Source: Escherichia phage LH2. Taken from it: a stretch of DNA of 64,000 nt. Numbering within the stretch: the first letter of the stretch is position 1; every line of letters begins with the position of its first letter. The notes under the pieces were generated by a model that was given only the letters and a program-made list of their open reading frames with translations, had not been told where the DNA came from and searched no databases. A program made the position numbers and the translations under genes. Location: sequence record OQ378934.1; one strand, given 5' to 3'. This document shows, one piece after another, positions 5,434-16,231 of the stretch.

Positions 5434-5961
5434 ATGAGCGAATGGTTTGAAGAAGATAAGGTTTATCGCTTTAAAACTGGGTATAAAGATATTTTTAATG
5501 AAACTTGCGGGGCTAATAAACGAATTGCCCAGTTTATTGGGGAAAATTCATTTAAAGTAAAAATTGACCCTGCAAAGAATGTTATTAGCATTAAACGCGA
5601 AATTGATGACTGCTGGTATAAAGCTGTTGATGTAATGGGCGAATCTTATAAAGTTAGCCCGTTATTTTCAATTGCTTATATGTCAGAATATTCTTTTTTC
5701 GAAGAAGTTCAAAAAGATGATTCTGTCAGTAAATTTGAAATTAAAACTGATAAAGAAATTAAGTGGAAAGTAGTAGGTATTACTGGTTGTATGTTTTATA
5801 TCTATGCTCAAACTGATACGAAGGAAGAAGCTAAAAAGAAAGCTCTAGAATATCTTGAAGAGTATGAAGAAGGCCCGGTAATGATTACTCAAGATGCTGA
5901 ATTAGTTTCTGTCAAATTAGTTAAAAACGTTGAAAGTAAGGAGCTGGGATCAACATGCTAA
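5434..5961 (+). CDS. Hypothetical protein, 175 aa
   Basis: ORF with SD gagg upstream, preceded by early promoter. Confidence 0.5.
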   Translation: MSEWFEEDKVYRFKTGYKDIFNETCGANKRIAQFIGENSFKVKIDPAKNVISIKREIDDCWYKAVDVMGESYKVSPLFSIAYMSEYSFFEEVQKDDSVSKFEIKTDKEIKWKVVGITGCMFYIYAQTDTKEEAKKKALEYLEEYEEGPVMITQDAELVSVKLVKNVESKELGSTC

Positions 5962-8437: not shown

Positions 8438-8835
8438 TTTATTGGAGAGTCACTGCCTTAGTGTGAAGTTAAAACGAGGAGCCGTCGAACTGTCTGATTA
8501 ATGATTTGCGAATCATTATAGTTTTAAGACCCCGGCAGTTTTACGGTGTACCTCTTGAATGTTATTCTTATAGCGGCAAGTGCATGCTACCCCGAGGTGA
8601 TGGCTAATCGGGAGTACGCCTCAAGGCCTATATATCCATCAGTATATATCTTATCCTCGAGAAATCGGACCCGGAACCTTTAAGCTAACGGTGTGCAACA
8701 GATAAGAGCTATAAGGTATGATGACGGGTTTATGGTTATCCTGGTCGTTAAATATTCAAAAACCTATGTTCCCCTTGAGGGCTTGCGCAGGCAATGCCAA
8801 TAAGTCCTGCATTTTCATTTAAAAGAGAATTTATA

Positions 8836-9012: not shown

Positions 9013-9016
9013 GTTA

Positions 9017-9046
9017 AGGACTCCTTCGGGAGTCCTTTTTTATTTT
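9017..9046 (+). terminator. Rho-independent terminator (aggactcc-ttcg-ggagtcct + T-run)
   Basis: Perfect 8 bp stem with UUCG tetraloop followed by tttttatttt. Confidence 0.8.
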
Positions 9047-9065: not shown

Positions 9066-9095
9066 GTTTACAGTATGGTTCCTTTGTGATAGTAT
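9066..9095 (+). promoter_or_regulatory. T4 early-type promoter (GTTTAC, 18 nt spacer, TAGTAT/TATTAT)
   Basis: gtttac 9066-9071; -10-like 9090-9098. Confidence 0.4.
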
Positions 9096-9122: not shown

Positions 9123-9173
9123 ATGAAAACGATTAATCGGGTTACGGTCATTGGGCTGATGTTGAAATTATAA
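9123..9173 (+). CDS. 16-codon mini-ORF with strong SD (aaggag), hydrophobic peptide MKTINRVTVIGLMLKL
   Basis: aaggagaataaaATG; stop 9 nt before the NADAR ATG. Confidence 0.3.
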   Translation: MKTINRVTVIGLMLKL

Positions 9174-9182
9174 GTATTAAAG

Positions 9183-9641
9183 ATGTCTGAATTAGAGATT
9201 AGAAGCAATTTTAGATGGCCATCATGTGCATTAAGCAATTTCGCCCAATGGCCTTTCGTTATGGATGGTATCCAATTTGGAGGTCTCGAAGGATTCCTCC
9301 AAGGATGTAAGGTGAAAAATGTTGAACACCAACGTCGTATATTTGGGTTATCTGGGCTTGCCGCCCAACAAGCTGGAAGGTCTTATGCTAGAGCTCAGGA
9401 CCGTGGCACGTTGTTCTGGCTTGGAACTCCGTTTTCAAGATACTCCTCAGCGTGGAAAGAATTATACACAAATGCATATTTTGAAGCAGCGTTCCAAAAC
9501 AAGGGCTTTCGTGATGCATTACAAGTCTCGAAAGGAAAAGTTTTGAAGCACAGCATGGCTAGTGGTCTAACAAAAGATGATACAATACTAACCGAAGCTG
9601 AATTTATTGATGTGTTAAACCTATTAAGAGACTCTCTATGA
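9183..9641 (+). CDS. NADAR-domain protein (YbiA-like), 152 aa
   Basis: SNFAQWPFVMDGIQFGGLEGFLQGCK resembles the YbiA/NADAR core (E. coli YbiA FSNFAAWPIKVDGKTWPTSEHYFQAQK); GC content visibly higher than flanking genes. Confidence 0.6.
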   Translation: MSELEIRSNFRWPSCALSNFAQWPFVMDGIQFGGLEGFLQGCKVKNVEHQRRIFGLSGLAAQQAGRSYARAQDRGTLFWLGTPFSRYSSAWKELYTNAYFEAAFQNKGFRDALQVSKGKVLKHSMASGLTKDDTILTEAEFIDVLNLLRDSL

Positions 9642-10501
9642 AGCCTACTATTTTAACTGATATTGATGGAGTATGTTTAAGCTGGCAATCAGGTCTTCCT
9701 TATTTTGCTCAGAAATATAATCTTCCATTAGAACATATTTTAAAAATGATCCAAGATGAGAAATTTATTTCTCCGGGTAAACTCTTTAATTGTGATGAAG
9801 AACTTGGCGTCAAGTTAATTGAAAAATACAATCGTTCAGATTTTATTCGTTACTTGTCTCCGTATAAAGATGCCCTGTGTGTAATTAACAAATTAAAAGA
9901 AGATTATAATTTTGTAGCTGTTACAGCATTGGGTGATTCTATTGACGCTCTGTTAAATCGTCAATTTAATTTGAATGCTCTTTTTCCTGGTGCCTTCTCA
10001 GAAGTAATGATGTGTGGTCATGATTCTTCAAAAGAAGAGTTATTCAAAAAGGCAAAAGAGAAATATAACGTAATTTGTTATATTGACGATCTCGCTCACC
10101 ACTGTGACCACGCGAGTGAAATATTGAATGTTCCTGTTTATTGGATGGCTCGAGGAGAGCGTGACAATATTCCAAAAACTGCGCAGCGAGTTTATACATG
10201 GAATGATGTAGAAAATAAGCTTTTTTCGCCGAAGGAAAATAAAGAAAGTTTTGATAGTGAAAAAGCTATAAAAGATGTAATTGAGAAGATGGTTAAAAAC
10301 GATTCTTTTCGTTGGAACACTACCTGGAGAACTCCTGGATTTAATCCGTATAATCCATATTATACACATCCATATAATCCATATTATACACACCCGTATC
10401 ATATGAATCCATTCCATACGTGGAGTTATACTAAGCCTGGTGATGCAGGGTATTTTAATAGATTTACTAGTGGTGATAATATTTTCCAAGGAGCATTCTA
10501 A
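9638..10501 (+). CDS. HAD-superfamily hydrolase (possible nucleotidase/phosphatase) with C-terminal Tyr/Pro-rich tandem repeat, 287 aa
   Basis: N-terminal HAD motif I LTDIDGVCL; C-terminal NPYNPYYTHPYNPYYTHPYHMNPFH. Confidence 0.55.
   Translation: MKPTILTDIDGVCLSWQSGLPYFAQKYNLPLEHILKMIQDEKFISPGKLFNCDEELGVKLIEKYNRSDFIRYLSPYKDALCVINKLKEDYNFVAVTALGDSIDALLNRQFNLNALFPGAFSEVMMCGHDSSKEELFKKAKEKYNVICYIDDLAHHCDHASEILNVPVYWMARGERDNIPKTAQRVYTWNDVENKLFSPKENKESFDSEKAIKDVIEKMVKNDSFRWNTTWRTPGFNPYNPYYTHPYNPYYTHPYHMNPFHTWSYTKPGDAGYFNRFTSGDNIFQGAF
10346..10410 (+). repeat. 24 bp direct tandem repeat (about 2.5 copies) inside the HAD gene 3' region
   Basis: ccgtataatccatattatacacat / ccatataatccatattatacacac / partial third copy. 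Confidence 0.8.
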
Positions 10502-10770
10502 TGTTTGTCGTTCACACTATTTATGAAAATGAAGGTAATACTACACGTGATTACGGTCACGTAAATCAATTTTTTAGATGCAATCCAGAATTCCGAGCTC
10601 AAAAAGACGAACGAATTTTTAAAAAATGTGTAGAGCAAGGTTTCATTTACGTCAAGCACTGGATGCAAGGAAATAAAGTTAGAACTACATATCATAAGTC
10701 TTTGCCTGAGCTTAATGATGAATTGATTTATAATAGAGCTGTAAATCAAACTCTGAAGGATGAACAATGA
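10501..10770 (+). CDS. Hypothetical protein, 89 aa
   Basis: Coupled ORF (ATGA overlap with gene 30 start). Confidence 0.45.
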   Translation: MFVVHTIYENEGNTTRDYGHVNQFFRCNPEFRAQKDERIFKKCVEQGFIYVKHWMQGNKVRTTYHKSLPELNDELIYNRAVNQTLKDEQ

Positions 10771-12227
10771 TTCTTAAAATTCTGAATGAAATAGCATCTA
10801 TTGGATCAACTAAGCAGAAGCAAGCAATTCTTGAAAAGAATAAAGATAATGAATTGCTTAAACGGGTATATCGTCTGACTTATTCTCGTGGGTTACAGTA
10901 TTATATCAAGAAATGGCCTAAACCTGGTATTGCTACCCAGAGTTTTGGAATGCTGACTATTACCGATATGCTTGACTTCATTGAATTCACGTTAGCTACT
11001 CGGAAATTGACCGGAAATGCTGCAATTGAGGAATTGACTGGATATATCACCGATGGTAAAAAGGATGATGTTGAAGTTTTGCGTCGAGTGATGATGCGAG
11101 ACCTTGAATGCGGTGCTTCAGTATCTATTGCAAACAAAGTTTGGCCAGGTTTAATTCCTGAACAACCTCAAATGCTGGCAAGTTCTTATGATGAAAAAGG
11201 CATTAGTAAGAATATCAAGTTTCCAGCTTTTGCACAGTTAAAAGCAGATGGAGCTCGGTGTTTTGCTGAAGTCCGAGGTGATGAATTAGATGATGTTCGT
11301 CTTTTATCACGAGCTGGTAATGAATATCTAGGATTAGATCTTCTTAAGGAAGAGTTAATCAAAATGACTGCTGAAGCCCGCCAGATTCATCCAGAAGGTG
11401 TGTTAATTGACGGCGAATTGGTATACCATGAGCAAGTTGAAAAGGAACCAGAAGGCCTAGATTTTCTTTTTGATGCTCCTGAAATCAGTAAAGCTAAAGA
11501 GTTTGCCGAAGTAGCTGAATCTCGTACTGCTTCTAATGGAATCGCCAATAAATCTTTAAAGGGAACTATTTCAGAAAAAGAAGCCAAATGCATGAAGTTT
11601 CAGGTCTGGGATTATGTTCCGTTGGTAGAAATATACGGTCTTCCGGCGTTTCGTTTAAAATATGATGTACGTTTTTCTAAACTAGAACAAATGACATCAG
11701 GATATAATAAAGTAATTTTAATTGAAAACCAAGTAGTAAATAACCTAGATGAAGCTAAGGTAATTTATAAAAAATATATTGACCAAGGTCTTGAAGGTAT
11801 TATTCTCAAAAATACCGATGGATTGTGGGAAAATGCTCGTTCAAAAAATCTCTATAAATTTAAAGAAGTAATTGATGTTGATTTAAAAATTGTAGGAATT
11901 TATCCTCACCGTAAAGACCCTACTAAAGCAGGTGGATTTATTCTTGAATCAGAGTGTGGAAAAATTAAAGTAAATGCAGGTTCAGGCTTAAAAGATAAAG
12001 CCGGTGTAAAATCACATGAACTTGACCGTACTCGCATTATGGAAAACCAAAATTATTATATTGGAAAAATTCTAGAGTGCGAATGCAACGGCTGGTTAAA
12101 ATCTGATGGCCGCACTGATTACGTTAAATTATTTCTTCCAATTGCGATTCGTTTACGTGAAGATAAAACTAAAGCTAATACATTTGAGGATGTATTTGGT
12201 GATTTTCATGAGGTAACTGGTCTATGA
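10767..12227 (+). CDS. 30: ATP-dependent DNA ligase (gene 30), 486 aa
   Basis: MILKILNEIASIGSTKQKQAILEKNKDNELLKRVYRLTY... with adenylation motif QLKADGARCF; matches T4 gp30. Confidence 0.9.
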   Translation: MILKILNEIASIGSTKQKQAILEKNKDNELLKRVYRLTYSRGLQYYIKKWPKPGIATQSFGMLTITDMLDFIEFTLATRKLTGNAAIEELTGYITDGKKDDVEVLRRVMMRDLECGASVSIANKVWPGLIPEQPQMLASSYDEKGISKNIKFPAFAQLKADGARCFAEVRGDELDDVRLLSRAGNEYLGLDLLKEELIKMTAEARQIHPEGVLIDGELVYHEQVEKEPEGLDFLFDAPEISKAKEFAEVAESRTASNGIANKSLKGTISEKEAKCMKFQVWDYVPLVEIYGLPAFRLKYDVRFSKLEQMTSGYNKVILIENQVVNNLDEAKVIYKKYIDQGLEGIILKNTDGLWENARSKNLYKFKEVIDVDLKIVGIYPHRKDPTKAGGFILESECGKIKVNAGSGLKDKAGVKSHELDRTRIMENQNYYIGKILECECNGWLKSDGRTDYVKLFLPIAIRLREDKTKANTFEDVFGDFHEVTGL

Positions 12228-12412
12228 AAGCTTACTTAGAAACAATTGTCATTGCTCAAAAAGAAGGTGGAGATGTTTCTACTTCTGTATCACAAATCGT
12301 TCTTGAATTTGTAGATGCATATGCTTATAATAAATTCACAGAAACATTTGATGCCTATGAAAAAGGTCCAAAGTTTGAAATATATCGTACTCTCTTACCA
12401 TTAGATTATTAA
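12224..12412 (+). CDS. Hypothetical small protein, 62 aa
   Basis: ATGA-coupled to gene 30; followed by terminator hairpin. Confidence 0.4.
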   Translation: MKAYLETIVIAQKEGGDVSTSVSQIVLEFVDAYAYNKFTETFDAYEKGPKFEIYRTLLPLDY

Positions 12413-12434
12413 AGGCCTTCGGGCCTTTAATTTT
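12411..12434 (+). terminator. Intrinsic terminator (aaaggcc-ttcg-ggccttt + T-rich)
   Basis: 7 bp stem with UUCG loop followed by aatttt. Confidence 0.65.
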
Positions 12435-12441
12435 ATAAATA
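12434..12441 (+). promoter_or_regulatory. Late promoter TATAAATA upstream of alt
   Basis: Exact tataaata about 30 nt before the alt ATG. Confidence 0.5.
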
Positions 12442-12470
12442 GAATAAGAATAAACACTAGAGAGGATATG

Positions 12471-14525
12471 ATGGAACTCATTACAGAATTATTTGACGAA
12501 GATACTACTCTTCCGATTACAAACTTAAATCCAAAGAAGAAAATACCGCAAATTTTTTCAGTTCATGTTGATGACGCAATTGAACAACCAGGCTTTCGTT
12601 TATGTACCTATACATCTGGAGGTGATACTAACCGTGATTTAAAGATGGGCGATAAAATGATGCATATTGTTCCTTTTACATTAACTGCTAAAGGTTCAAT
12701 TGCTAAATTAAAAGGTCTCGGTCCAAGCCCAATTAATTACATCAATTCAGTTTTTACTGTTGCGATGCAAACGATGCGTCAGTATAAAATTGATGCCTGC
12801 ATGCTTCGTATTCTTAAGTCTAAAACCGCTGGTCAAGCTCGACAAATTCAAGTTATTGCTGATAGACTTATCCGCAGTCGTTCAGGTGGCAGATACGTCC
12901 TTCTTAAGGAACTCTGGGATTACGATAAAAAGTATGCATATATTCTTATACATCGCAAAAATGTATCGCTAGAAGACATTCCAGGAGTTCCGGAAATTAG
13001 TACCGAGCTCTTTACTAAAGTTGAATCGAAGGTCGGCGATGTTTATATCAATAAAGATACTGGAGCTCAAGTAACTAAAAATGAGGCAATTGCAGCATCT
13101 ATTGCGCAAGAAAATGATAAACGTTCTGACCAAGCTGTAATCGTTAAAGTTAAAATTTCCCGTAGAGCAATTGCACAAAGTCAGTCATTAGAATCTTCTA
13201 GATTTGAAACACCAATGTTTCAAAAATTTGAGGCTTCAGCGGCAGAATTAAATAAACCCGCCGACGCACCTTTAATTTCTGATGCTAACGAATTAACTGT
13301 TATTTCTACTTCAGGATTTGCATTAGAGAATGCTCTTAGCAGTGTTACAGCTGGGATGGCATTCAGAGAAGCTTCTATAATTCCTGAAGATAAAGAATCC
13401 ATTATTAATGCAGAAATAAAAAATAAAGCTTTAGAAAAATTACGAAAAGAATCTATTACTTCAATAAAAACTTTAGAAACTATTGCTTCTATCGTCGATG
13501 ATACTTTAGAAAAATATAAAGGTGCTTGGTTTGAAAGAAATATTAACAGACATTCGCATTTAAACCAAGATGCTGCAAATGAGTTAGTACAAAATTCTTG
13601 GAATGCAATAAAAACAAAGATTATTCGAAGAGAATTACGTGGATATGCTCTTACCGCTGGATGGTCATTACATCCTATAGTCGAAAATAAAGATTCATCT
13701 AAATACACACCAGCGCAAAAACGCGGAATTCGTGAATATGTAGGTTCAGGATATGTAGACATAAATAATGCTCTTTTGGGATTATATAATCCAGATGAGC
13801 GTACAAGTATTTTAACAGCACCTGAAATAGAACAAGCCATTGATAATTTAGATTCAGCCTTTAAAAATGGTGAACGATTACCAAAAGGTATTACTTTGTA
13901 TCGTTCACAACGAATGTTACCTTCAATATATGAAGCAATGGTAAAAAATCGAGTTTTTTATTTTAGAAACTTTGTGTCAACATCATTATATCCAAATATT
14001 TTTGGTACTTGGATGACTGATTCATCTGTGGGTGTTTTACCAGACGAAAAGCGTTTAAGTGTTTCTATTGATAAAACTGATGAAGGGCTTGTTAATTCTA
14101 GCGATAATTTAGTCGGAATTGGATGGGTTATTACTGGGGCTGATAAAGTCAATGTTGTTTTACCCGGTGGAAGTTTAGCGCCTTCAAATGAAATGGAAGT
14201 CATTTTGCCACGTGGATTAATGGTCAAAGTTAATAAAATAACCGATGCATCTTACAACGATGGAACAGTTAGAACTAACAACAAGCTTATTCAAGCTGAA
14301 GTTATGACCACAGAAGAACTCACCGAATCGGTAATCTATGACGGAGACCATTTAATGGAAACTGGTGAATTGGTTGCAATGACAGGTGATATTGAAATAG
14401 AAGACAGAGTTGACTTTGCATCATTTGTTTCATCAAACGTTAAACAGAAAGTAGAATCATCTCTCGGAATTATTGCGTCTTGCATAGATATTGCAAACAT
14501 GCCTTACAAGTTCGTTCAAGGATAA
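12471..14525 (+). CDS. alt: Alt, head-packaged ADP-ribosyltransferase (about 684 aa)
   Basis: Length and position next to gene 30 and gene 54 as in T4; late promoter upstream. ORF-track start at 12468 is an adjacent ATG. Confidence 0.8.
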   Translation: MELITELFDEDTTLPITNLNPKKKIPQIFSVHVDDAIEQPGFRLCTYTSGGDTNRDLKMGDKMMHIVPFTLTAKGSIAKLKGLGPSPINYINSVFTVAMQTMRQYKIDACMLRILKSKTAGQARQIQVIADRLIRSRSGGRYVLLKELWDYDKKYAYILIHRKNVSLEDIPGVPEISTELFTKVESKVGDVYINKDTGAQVTKNEAIAASIAQENDKRSDQAVIVKVKISRRAIAQSQSLESSRFETPMFQKFEASAAELNKPADAPLISDANELTVISTSGFALENALSSVTAGMAFREASIIPEDKESIINAEIKNKALEKLRKESITSIKTLETIASIVDDTLEKYKGAWFERNINRHSHLNQDAANELVQNSWNAIKTKIIRRELRGYALTAGWSLHPIVENKDSSKYTPAQKRGIREYVGSGYVDINNALLGLYNPDERTSILTAPEIEQAIDNLDSAFKNGERLPKGITLYRSQRMLPSIYEAMVKNRVFYFRNFVSTSLYPNIFGTWMTDSSVGVLPDEKRLSVSIDKTDEGLVNSSDNLVGIGWVITGADKVNVVLPGGSLAPSNEMEVILPRGLMVKVNKITDASYNDGTVRTNNKLIQAEVMTTEELTESVIYDGDHLMETGELVAMTGDIEIEDRVDFASFVSSNVKQKVESSLGIIASCIDIANMPYKFVQG

Positions 14526-14528
14526 ATC

Positions 14529-14714
14529 GTGGAACTTATTACAGAATTATTTGACGGCGCTTCGGCGCCGGTTGTTAACTTAAATCCTAAGCATAAAATA
14601 CCACAAATTTTTGCTATTCAAGCCGGCGAAGAAAGCGTGCTTCCTGGATTTAGATTTTGTACATACACCTCTGGCGGTGATACAAATAAAACGTTAAACC
14701 AGGCGACAAAATGA
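14529..14714 (+). pseudogene. Truncated alt paralog, part 1 (alt.-1-like; homologous to Alt residues 2-62), GTG start
   Basis: MELITELFDGASAPVVNLNPKHKIPQIFAIQAGEESVLPGFRFCTYTSGGDTN vs Alt MELITELFDEDTTLPITNLNPKKKIPQIFSVHVDDAIEQPGFRLCTYTSGGDTN. Confidence 0.6.
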
Positions 14715-14914
14715 TGCATATCGTAATGATAGGTGTTAATGAGAAACTATCATTAGTTAAGCTTAAAAACTTGGGTGGAAATCCAATTGGTGTCATTAAT
14801 GCTGTTTTTGATACTGCTCTTCAAACAATGAAACAGTATAAAATCGACGCATGCCTATTACGCGTACTAAAAAGTTCAAAATGTAGTTTACAAGTCCCTC
14901 GTGTTGTGTTATAA
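14711..14914 (+). pseudogene. Truncated alt paralog, part 2 (alt.-2-like; homologous to Alt residues 64-120), frame-shifted relative to part 1 and ending inside an early promoter element
   Basis: MMHIV...GVINAVFDTALQTMKQYKIDACLLRVLKS vs Alt MMHIVPFTL...NYINSVFTVAMQTMRQYKIDACMLRILKS; reading frame then runs into the gtttac...tataat element. Confidence 0.6.
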
Positions 14915-14915
14915 T
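14886..14915 (+). promoter_or_regulatory. T4 early-type promoter (GTTTAC, 18 nt spacer, TATAAT) within a ~50 bp element repeated at 2369-2422
   Basis: gtttac 14886-14891, tataat 14910-14915; inverted repeat cctcgtgtt...ataacacgagg. Confidence 0.55.
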
Positions 14916-14946
14916 AATCTTACTGACATAACACGAGGAACACAAA

Positions 14947-15237
14947 ATGAAATCTTCTTTGCGCTTTTTAGGTCAAGAACTTGTAGTTGAAGGCGTTATT
15001 CCTGCTGATAATGCTTTTAATGAAGCAGTTTACGATGAATTTATCAAAATTTTTGGAACAGATAAAAAGTTCGGAATTTTTCCTTCTGAAAATTTTTCAA
15101 AGCCAGAGCAGACTGAAAGTATTTTCCAAGGTGTAGTAACAGGTAAATTTGAGTCAGAAGCTCCGGTAAAAATTGAAGTTTATATTGAAGACAGTTTAGT
15201 TGCTTCAGTTGCTGCTTTTATTTCATTCCGTAAATAA
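14947..15237 (+). CDS. Hypothetical early protein (alt.-3-like), 96 aa
   Basis: SD gagga 7 nt upstream; early promoter upstream; bidirectional terminator downstream. Confidence 0.45.
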   Translation: MKSSLRFLGQELVVEGVIPADNAFNEAVYDEFIKIFGTDKKFGIFPSENFSKPEQTESIFQGVVTGKFESEAPVKIEVYIEDSLVASVAAFISFRK

Positions 15238-15243
15238 AAATAT

Positions 15244-15261
15244 GGGGACCGAAAGGTCCCC
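15244..15261. terminator. Bidirectional terminator hairpin (ggggacc-gaaa-ggtcccc) between convergent genes
   Basis: Perfect 7 bp G/C stem with GAAA loop, flanked by A/T runs on both sides. Confidence 0.65.
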
Positions 15262-15265
15262 ATTG

Positions 15266-16231
15266 TTATATTGCTCCTAATATTTTACTTTGCGAGTTGA
15301 CAATTCCCGTCATAGTATTAATGTTTGAAATGCTTCCTGAGGTTCCTCCTAGTCTACTAAGTCGTGAAAGCGAATTAGATAGTCCAGTAACACCTCCACT
15401 ATTTCCGAGAACGCTTTGAATGCCATTTATAGCAGCAGATTCAAGCCACTCAAGCGCAGCTTGTCTATCAACCGACCCAGCCTGCATGACTCTATACGCA
15501 AAAGTAACATCAAATGTAGTTATTTGGTTATCTCCATCATATGATAACTCAGGAGCGCTCACTGACACTGGAATGCATCCGGTGAACATCACAGCAGTAT
15601 GAGGTAATCCATTACGAGCATGAAGATTAACCTGAATGTCTGCTTCAACATCTTGCGGCAAAGCACGTAATCCAGTTACTGGGTCTTGAACAGCGTTAAC
15701 CCAGTCTTGCATCGCACGATAATTACATGCTTCTGAATCCATCCTAAATGAAATAACCAAAGGGTCTAATTCTCTCCCAGTTATACGAATATTAGGAGAA
15801 TTATAGTTCCAGTCAGTTTCATAGGATAATCTATTCTCTGGCATTTTTACAGAATATATCATCAATCCAGATGAGTTATATGCCATGTTAAAGAAGTCAA
15901 TTAAATATGTACCAACCGTAAATGAGCCTAATAAACTTTGAACTGTGCGTTGACTCATGGCACCAATAAGATATTTACTGACTCCTGATTTTCTTATTAG
16001 TTTTTGTGTGCCAGCTGTAATTAGCGTGGTAATTCCCTGATTAATATCACCTTGAGTTAATCCTAACCAATTTGAATTTAGGCCCAAGTTATTATAAGAA
16101 AAGTTGCTAATTGAACTTATCAACGAAGAGCTTTTAGTTGATGGAGTTGTCGCAAAAACGCAGCTAAACATATTATTACGTTGGAAATCTGCGTTTATTG
16201 CTTGATTATTAAATTCCTCTAAAGAATACAT
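15266..16231 (-). CDS. 54: Baseplate tail-tube junction protein gp54, 321 aa
   Basis: Size and order 54-48-29-28-27-51 as in T4 baseplate hub cluster. Confidence 0.75.
   Translation of the reverse strand: MYSLEEFNNQAINADFQRNNMFSCVFATTPSTKSSSLISSISNFSYNNLGLNSNWLGLTQGDINQGITTLITAGTQKLIRKSGVSKYLIGAMSQRTVQSLLGSFTVGTYLIDFFNMAYNSSGLMIYSVKMPENRLSYETDWNYNSPNIRITGRELDPLVISFRMDSEACNYRAMQDWVNAVQDPVTGLRALPQDVEADIQVNLHARNGLPHTAVMFTGCIPVSVSAPELSYDGDNQITTFDVTFAYRVMQAGSVDRQAALEWLESAAINGIQSVLGNSGGVTGLSNSLSRLSRLGGTSGSISNINTMTGIVNSQSKILGAI

Follow-up and report, generated by a model that had tools for sequence, protein, structure and literature searches.

Escherichia phage LH2 carries an ortholog of T4 adfN (gene 30.3), very probably a NADAR enzyme that reverses DarT1 guanine marks on phage DNA

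The 64,000-nucleotide stretch of Escherichia phage LH2 analysed here (sequence record OQ378934.1; hereafter the window) encodes, at 9183-9641, a protein that is, with a probability of roughly 0.93, AdfN, the product of phage T4 gene 30.3. AdfN is a minimal single-domain NADAR protein, an 'orphan antitoxin' that reverses the guanine marks placed on phage DNA by DarT1. This anti-defence function is not new, as genetic, mutational and biochemical work published between 2023 and 2025 demonstrated it for a protein that shares 96% identity with the present one, and as a discovery one more intact copy of an anti-defence gene that is already characterised has little importance. Its practical use is the functional annotation of a gene that nearly all of the GenBank records listed call a 'hypothetical protein', together with the prediction that this phage should plate on E. 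coli carrying DarTG1. In the proposed mechanism, DarT1 of the host DarTG1 toxin-antitoxin defence would be activated on infection and would place ADP-ribose (ADP, adenosine diphosphate) on guanines of phage DNA, blocking replication. AdfN would bind the ADP-ribose, with K43 positioned at the diphosphate and the pair E36 and H123 at the distal ribose, and would hydrolyse the N-glycosidic link between ribose and guanine, giving unmodified DNA on which replication could resume. This would proceed without binding of AdfN to DarT1.

The window is a T4-like (Tequatrovirus) segment, as judged from the T4 annotation and from an alignment that runs collinear with T4 at 95-99% identity. Positions 9143-15984 align with T4 128805-122000 at 95.4% identity, and the order on the + strand is the T4-type order cd, 31, rIII, 30.9, 30.3, 30.2, 30.1, DNA ligase, alt.1, alt and alt.-1/-2/-3, followed by gene 54 on the opposite strand. 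The open reading frame (ORF) of adfN begins with ATG and specifies 152 amino acids, exactly as an earlier reading made from the sequence alone (the sequence-only reading) had described it. In an ungapped pairwise alignment, 146 of the 152 residues match T4 gp30.3, and residues 11-150 match the whole of the Pfam family Phage_30_3 (PF08010; model positions 1-138 of 138) with E=1.1e-67 and a score of 226.6 bits (cut-off 36). Conservation was assessed in 67 full-length aligned homologs that are 34-87% identical to the window protein. The gene and its key codons are as follows.

9183..9641, + strand: adfN, ortholog of T4 gene 30.3, encoding a 152-residue phage-type NADAR and predicted DNA guanine-ADP-ribosyl glycohydrolase (ORF, T4 identity, PF08010 match and structural model)
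9234..9242, + strand: codons of S18-N19-F20, the SNF motif opening the NADAR core; invariant in the 67 homologs and aligned with FSNF of E. coli YbiA
9288..9290, + strand: codon GAA of E36, the catalytic glutamate; invariant and aligned with the Glu of YbiA SEHYFQ; E36A inactivates T4 AdfN (PMC11825919)
9309..9311, + strand: codon AAG of K43, the phosphate-coordinating lysine; at least 90% conserved; K43A impairs T4 AdfN
9549..9551, + strand: codon CAC of H123, the last-strand histidine marking phage-type NADARs; invariant and within predicted strand 120-123
9594..9635, + strand: C-terminal helix, residues 138-151 (model helix, T4 identity), needed for full activity according to truncation data from RB69, whose frameshifted allele lacks it

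The six substitutions relative to T4 AdfN (T4 to window: Q49H, V82T, P89S, I104F, A115V and I125M) all fall in variable alignment columns. Residues 126-152 are the same as in T4, so that the C-terminal helix is kept, free of an RB69-type frameshift at nucleotide 411. Because E36, K43, H123 and the whole helix are retained and the differences lie at variable positions, adfN of the window should be functional, and the activity of its product is expected to be that of T4 AdfN.

Membership of the NADAR superfamily is visible at several levels. The core motif quoted by the sequence-only reading (SNFAQWP...DG...E.FLQ) can be read directly as S18-N19-F20-A-Q-W-P24, D28-G29, E36-G-F-L-Q40 and K43. Eleven residues (S18, N19, F20, E36, G37, F38, Q40, H123, T134, L136 and T137) are invariant in the homologs, and conservation is 90% or higher at D28, G29 and K43. 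Individually, 8 of the 67 members of the PF08010 family match the Pfam NADAR model (PF08719), the best with E=1.5e-7. Searched against the PDB with phmmer, the single sequence has E. coli YbiA as its sole match, at a non-significant E=0.99, and the profile of the 67 homologs again matches only YbiA (2b3w), with E=0.005, placing SNF, E36, Q40 and K43 on YbiA SNF...SEHYFQAQK. The AlphaFold2 model of the window protein is confident (predicted local distance difference test 93.1, predicted template modelling score 0.89), with a strand at 120-123 and a helix at 138-151, and its fold matches in the PDB (Foldseek) are NADARs only, E. coli YbiA being among the top. By this predicted fold, the YbiA type with small sheets on the flanks of a helical core, the catalytic residues and the family-level sequence links, the window protein belongs to the NADAR superfamily, and the domain assignment of the sequence-only reading, with the structure prediction it had called for, is borne out. 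Within the superfamily, subfamilies are told apart by one position, occupied by Glu in proteins of YbiA type, by Asp in those of DarG1 type and by His in phage NADARs (PMC11125620, PMC11543638), and in the window protein this position, in the last of the predicted strands, is H123; the histidine variant of phage NADARs was already remarked by Schuller et al. 2023 (PMC11543638). The window protein is not of DarG1 type, having His123 instead of Asp; its gene is flanked by a 30.8'/30.4' remnant on one side and by HAD-like gp30.2 on the other, and neither gives a Pfam match to an ADP-ribosyltransferase (ART) domain. Nor is it of YbiA type, as an invariant His stands where that type has Glu.

The function of T4 gp30.3 has been established in a series of studies. 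NADARs hydrolyse guanine-linked ADP-ribose and serve as DarTG1 antitoxins (Schuller et al. 2023, PMC11543638), and the counterparts of K43 are K50 of PnNADAR and K95 of the E. coli C7 NADAR, two enzymes whose catalytic motif has, like that of T4 AdfN, been studied by mutation (PMC11543638). In vitro, the T4 NADAR removes ADP-ribose from guanine (G-ADPr) but not from thymidine (Toxins 2024, PMC11125620), leaves cytidine-linked ADP-ribose in place (2026 paper, PMC12945103), and also removes G-ADPr made by ScARP (PMC11125620, PMC12945103). Johannesman et al. (Nat Commun 2025, PMC11825919) traced the resistance that T-even phages show to DarTG1 back to gene 30.3, which they renamed adfN. In that work, adfN alone was enough to rescue RB69, in which the resident allele is frameshifted and lacks the C-terminal helix; E36A, K43A and C-terminal truncation impaired T4 AdfN; the purified protein stripped ADP-ribose from DarT1-modified DNA; and no interaction between AdfN and DarT1 was detected (PMC11825919). 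In a T4 transposon screen, 30.3 was non-essential on K-12 and lost on DarTG1, with a log2 fold change of -7.25 (bioRxiv 10.1101/2025.11.20.689424). The sequence-only reading had proposed the gene as a candidate anti-defence factor against host ADP-ribosylation, and its T4 ortholog is thus an experimentally demonstrated anti-DarTG1 enzyme, which T4 requires to grow on DarTG1 hosts (PMC11825919, PMC11125620).

Several observations weigh against extending this function to the window gene. The window protein gives no match to PF08719 at E<=1, so that the hidden Markov model (HMM) check proposed by the sequence-only reading fails for the single sequence and succeeds at the level of family members and profile. 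That reading took the lack of a NADAR HMM hit as grounds for abandoning the assignment, which we judge too strict, because Pfam puts the protein in a family of its own, PF08010, and the NADAR link shows at the member, profile and structure level. The exact window protein is absent from a collection of 15 billion proteins (exact-sequence look-up). The T4 NADAR cannot rescue uninfected cells from DarT1 (PMC11125620), and AdfN-T4 is fully active only in T-even infections and poor for non-T-even phages (PMC11825919). Finally, because the T4 upstream context including 30.4 has been lost, and T4 30.4 insertions cost fitness on DarTG1, the expression or function of adfN could differ here.

Relative to T4, 1,432 base pairs (T4 130237-128806) are missing upstream of adfN, with the junction at window 9138/9143. 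The deletion takes out 30.7, 30.6 and 30.5 completely, 30.8 for the most part, and 30.4 except for its last 15 codons; genes 30.5-30.8 were found nowhere in the window, and of gp30.4 just residues 54-68 remain, read out of frame. The junction is rare, being spanned by one of the 563 phage records that match the region, that of Escherichia phage CJY920. What now precedes adfN is as follows, where the first two features come from a consensus scan.

9016..9037, + strand: terminator-like hairpin (9-base-pair stem, 5 GC pairs) and T-run after 30.9, just upstream of the promoter-like site
9067..9095, + strand: putative early-type promoter, TTTACA-17-TAGTAT with an extended -10 TG, which precedes 30.8 in T4
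9124..9174, + strand: 16-codon remnant ORF in which the first 6 codons of 30.8 are joined to the out-of-frame 30.4 tail (junction versus T4), its stop lying 8 nucleotides before the adfN ATG

The region of the promoter-like site is 99% identical to T4 130658-130238, and the deletion of 30.4-30.8 has brought adfN to 88 nucleotides downstream of that site, from which adfN is probably expressed early.

That adfN is intact but under-expressed or weakened, because the deletion cost it a helper gene or the upstream context in which it normally lies, is quite improbable. In its favour, the T4 30.4 stop codon overlaps the adfN start, and 30.4 is the sole other gene in which T4 insertions were significantly depleted on DarTG1 (log2 fold change -1.79, adjusted p 0.014; 10.1101/2025.11.20.689424, Data S6), while in the window 30.4 is reduced to those 15 out-of-frame codons. 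The new position of adfN behind the promoter-like site, however, would if anything aid expression, and gp30.4 has no detectable homolog beside the adfN homologs of three other lineages (L008, L002 and L005; upstream searched). Because of this lack of neighbouring homologs, a polar effect on adfN is the simplest reading of the T4 30.4 phenotype, and gp30.4 was rejected as a conserved partner of AdfN. In the term searches of the screen paper's main text, none of them aimed at 30.4 itself, 30.4 did not turn up (10.1101/2025.11.20.689424). That gp30.4 is a genuine AdfN helper is very unlikely, and is considered because 30.4 is the only other T4 gene whose disruption lowers fitness on DarTG1 and AdfN is reported to need a T-even factor. 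Were it true, the phage would be partly sensitive to DarTG1, or would be compensated by having adfN directly behind an early promoter. Thanks to the rare deletion, this phage is a ready-made, inexpensive means of asking if the weak T4 30.4 signal is polar. The downstream neighbour gp30.2 (9638-10501, + strand), coupled to adfN by an ATGA overlap, was likewise rejected as the missing T-even partner, since it is unlinked to 30.3 homologs outside Tevenvirinae and its disruption by insertion is neutral for T4 on DarTG1 (log2 fold change -0.12, p=0.61).

The remaining alternatives concern the substrate of an active AdfN. The sequence-only reading pointed to the Alt ADP-ribosyltransferase, which is present at 12468/12471..14525 (ADPrib_exo_Tox, PF03496, E=1.4e-34), and suggested that the NADAR might regulate the phage's own ADP-ribosylation. 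Alt lies 2.8 kb downstream of adfN on the same strand, with 30.2, 30.1, ligase and alt.1 in between, and the two genes are also close together in L008, a Tevenvirinae-like contig of greater distance. This proximity is, however, simply conserved T4 (Tevenvirinae) gene order. For the distant Phage_30_3 loci of two other lineages (L002-L004 and L005-L007), the precomputed Pfam hits include no ART domain within 4 kb. The target of Alt is arginine in proteins, whereas all published AdfN activity is on guanine-ADPr in nucleic acids, not on thymidine- or cytidine-ADPr. In the T4 transposon screen, 30.3 insertions were neutral without DarTG1 and alt insertions neutral with it (log2 fold change -0.01). 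With no ART on record within 4 kb of the distant homologs and alt neutral on DarTG1, a functional link to Alt was rejected, and it is highly improbable that AdfN erases or tunes the marks that Alt (and ModA/ModB) place on host proteins or RNA. Metabolite repair of the YbiA kind, in which AdfN would cleave N-glycosidic bonds of reactive riboflavin-pathway intermediates and be unrelated to defence, would fit with E. coli YbiA, first characterised in riboflavin metabolism (PMC11543638), being the sole PDB sequence match and the top Foldseek match. It is extremely improbable, as the last-strand Glu that defines YbiA is replaced by the invariant H123 and the T4 ortholog has a strong and specific DarTG1 phenotype. 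An additional role, compatible with reversal of DarT1 marks, would be for AdfN to clear guanine-ADPr from RNA as well or to counter other guanine-specific ART toxins of the ScARP/pierisin-like kind. The removal of ScARP-made G-ADPr by the T4 NADAR speaks for this, but in the T4 screens covered here DarTG1 was the sole condition seen to give a phenotype; such a role is rather unlikely, though less so than the other alternatives.

The origin of adfN was also considered. The sequence-only reading had noted a GC content higher than that of neighbouring genes and took this as a sign of separate acquisition. At 41.6%, adfN indeed exceeds the window mean of 36.1% (standard deviation 3.4), ranking third among 68 ORFs and within the top 6% of 459-base-pair windows, with z-scores of 0.06, 1.35 and 2.3 for GC at codon positions 1, 2 and 3. 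Its neighbours rIII (41.8%) and 31 (40.5%), however, are equally GC-rich. The excess of about 1.7 standard deviations is too weak to serve as evidence of horizontal acquisition, and two of three distant adfN homologs also stand about 3-4 points above their own loci (43.5 versus 39.6%, 58.1 versus 54.9%, and 45.3 versus 45.1%), so this argument was set aside. A published phylogeny places phage adfN near DarG1 (PMC11825919). Any capture of adfN must be old, because the gene is present in 1,510 phage records. Among the GenBank phage records listed, nearly all homologs are annotated 'hypothetical protein', the exceptions including one Klebsiella phage record ('anti-CBASS protein acb1') and one Rhizobium phage ('swarming motility YbiA-like protein').

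Other features of the locus and of the wider window are recorded here as observations. Within adfN, a +1-frame ORF at 9319-9546 (+ strand), annotated in T4 as 30.3', is open here too, over 76 codons; in three distant homologs its open stretch measures 126, 100 and 54 codons, and its translation is putative. The protein gp30.2 carries the invariant motifs D8/D10/G11 (DxDG) and D150/D151 (DD), and its first approximately 200 residues give a confident model with the fold of the HAD superfamily, in which HAD hydrolases and 5'(3')-deoxyribonucleotidases are its nearest matches. It has no match in Pfam, and as a single sequence none in the PDB, where its profile gives a weak match to a 5'(3')-deoxyribonucleotidase (E=0.031). 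The gp30.2 tail, which differs from that of T4, is a His/Tyr/Pro-rich repeat, NPYNPYYTHPYNPYYTHPY, predicted to be disordered. Downstream of alt, the short ORFs alt.-1 and alt.-2 (14529-14914, + strand) are partial copies of the N-terminal region of Alt, with a DNA identity of about 68%, the same old partial alt duplication that the T4 annotation records. A 54-base-pair segment, GTTTACAAGTCCCTCGTGTTGTGTTATAGTAGACTTACTGACATAACATGAGGA, occurs twice with 4 mismatches, at 2369-2422 and 14886-14939 (+ strand), and from its sequence looks like an early-type promoter with leader and ribosome-binding site; one copy closely precedes the ORF at 2427, and the second precedes alt.-3 at 14947.

Two further segments are absent from T4. 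Between rIII and 30.9, a GC-rich non-coding segment of 155 base pairs (8563-8717) is kept at 90-99% in 381 phage records, including those of Klebsiella and Enterobacter phages; it was rejected as a structured RNA, as there is no Rfam match anywhere in the window and its fold z-scores against shuffled sequences are -0.23 and +0.28. Between cd.2 and cd.3, approximately 520 base pairs at 5437-5955 encode a 175-residue protein (ORF 5434-5961, + strand) with no Pfam match, an assignment to phrog_3710 (function unassigned) and a weak match to goF-like mRNA metabolism modulators.

Among known systems, DarTG1 has a NADAR antitoxin of its own, DarG1 (for example the NADARs of Geobacter lovleyi, 8bat, and of E. 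coli C7), from which the window gene differs in having no adjoining toxin gene. DarG1 has Asp in the last strand and extra N-terminal elements, where the window protein has His and the core only, and DarG1 cannot be replaced by the T4 protein in uninfected cells. With E. coli YbiA (2b3w) the window protein has the SNF...E..FQ..K core in common, at an overall identity of about 18-20%; YbiA types remove cytidine-ADPr, which the T4 NADAR does not, and YbiA has Glu in place of H123. AdfN-Bas32 and AdfN-Bas60, of T5-like and Vequintavirinae phages, are also phage-borne NADARs with the same anti-DarTG1 chemistry, but were independently acquired from other NADAR branches and, unlike AdfN-T4, work without a T-even context. 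The closest system is phage T4 AdfN itself (gp30.3, PF08010), with the same length of 152 residues, the same E36, K43 and H123, the same C-terminal helix and the same downstream genes, 30.2-30.1-ligase-alt.1-alt. The difference lies upstream: in T4 the gene overlaps 30.4, whereas in the window, with 30.4-30.8 deleted, it directly follows the promoter-like site.
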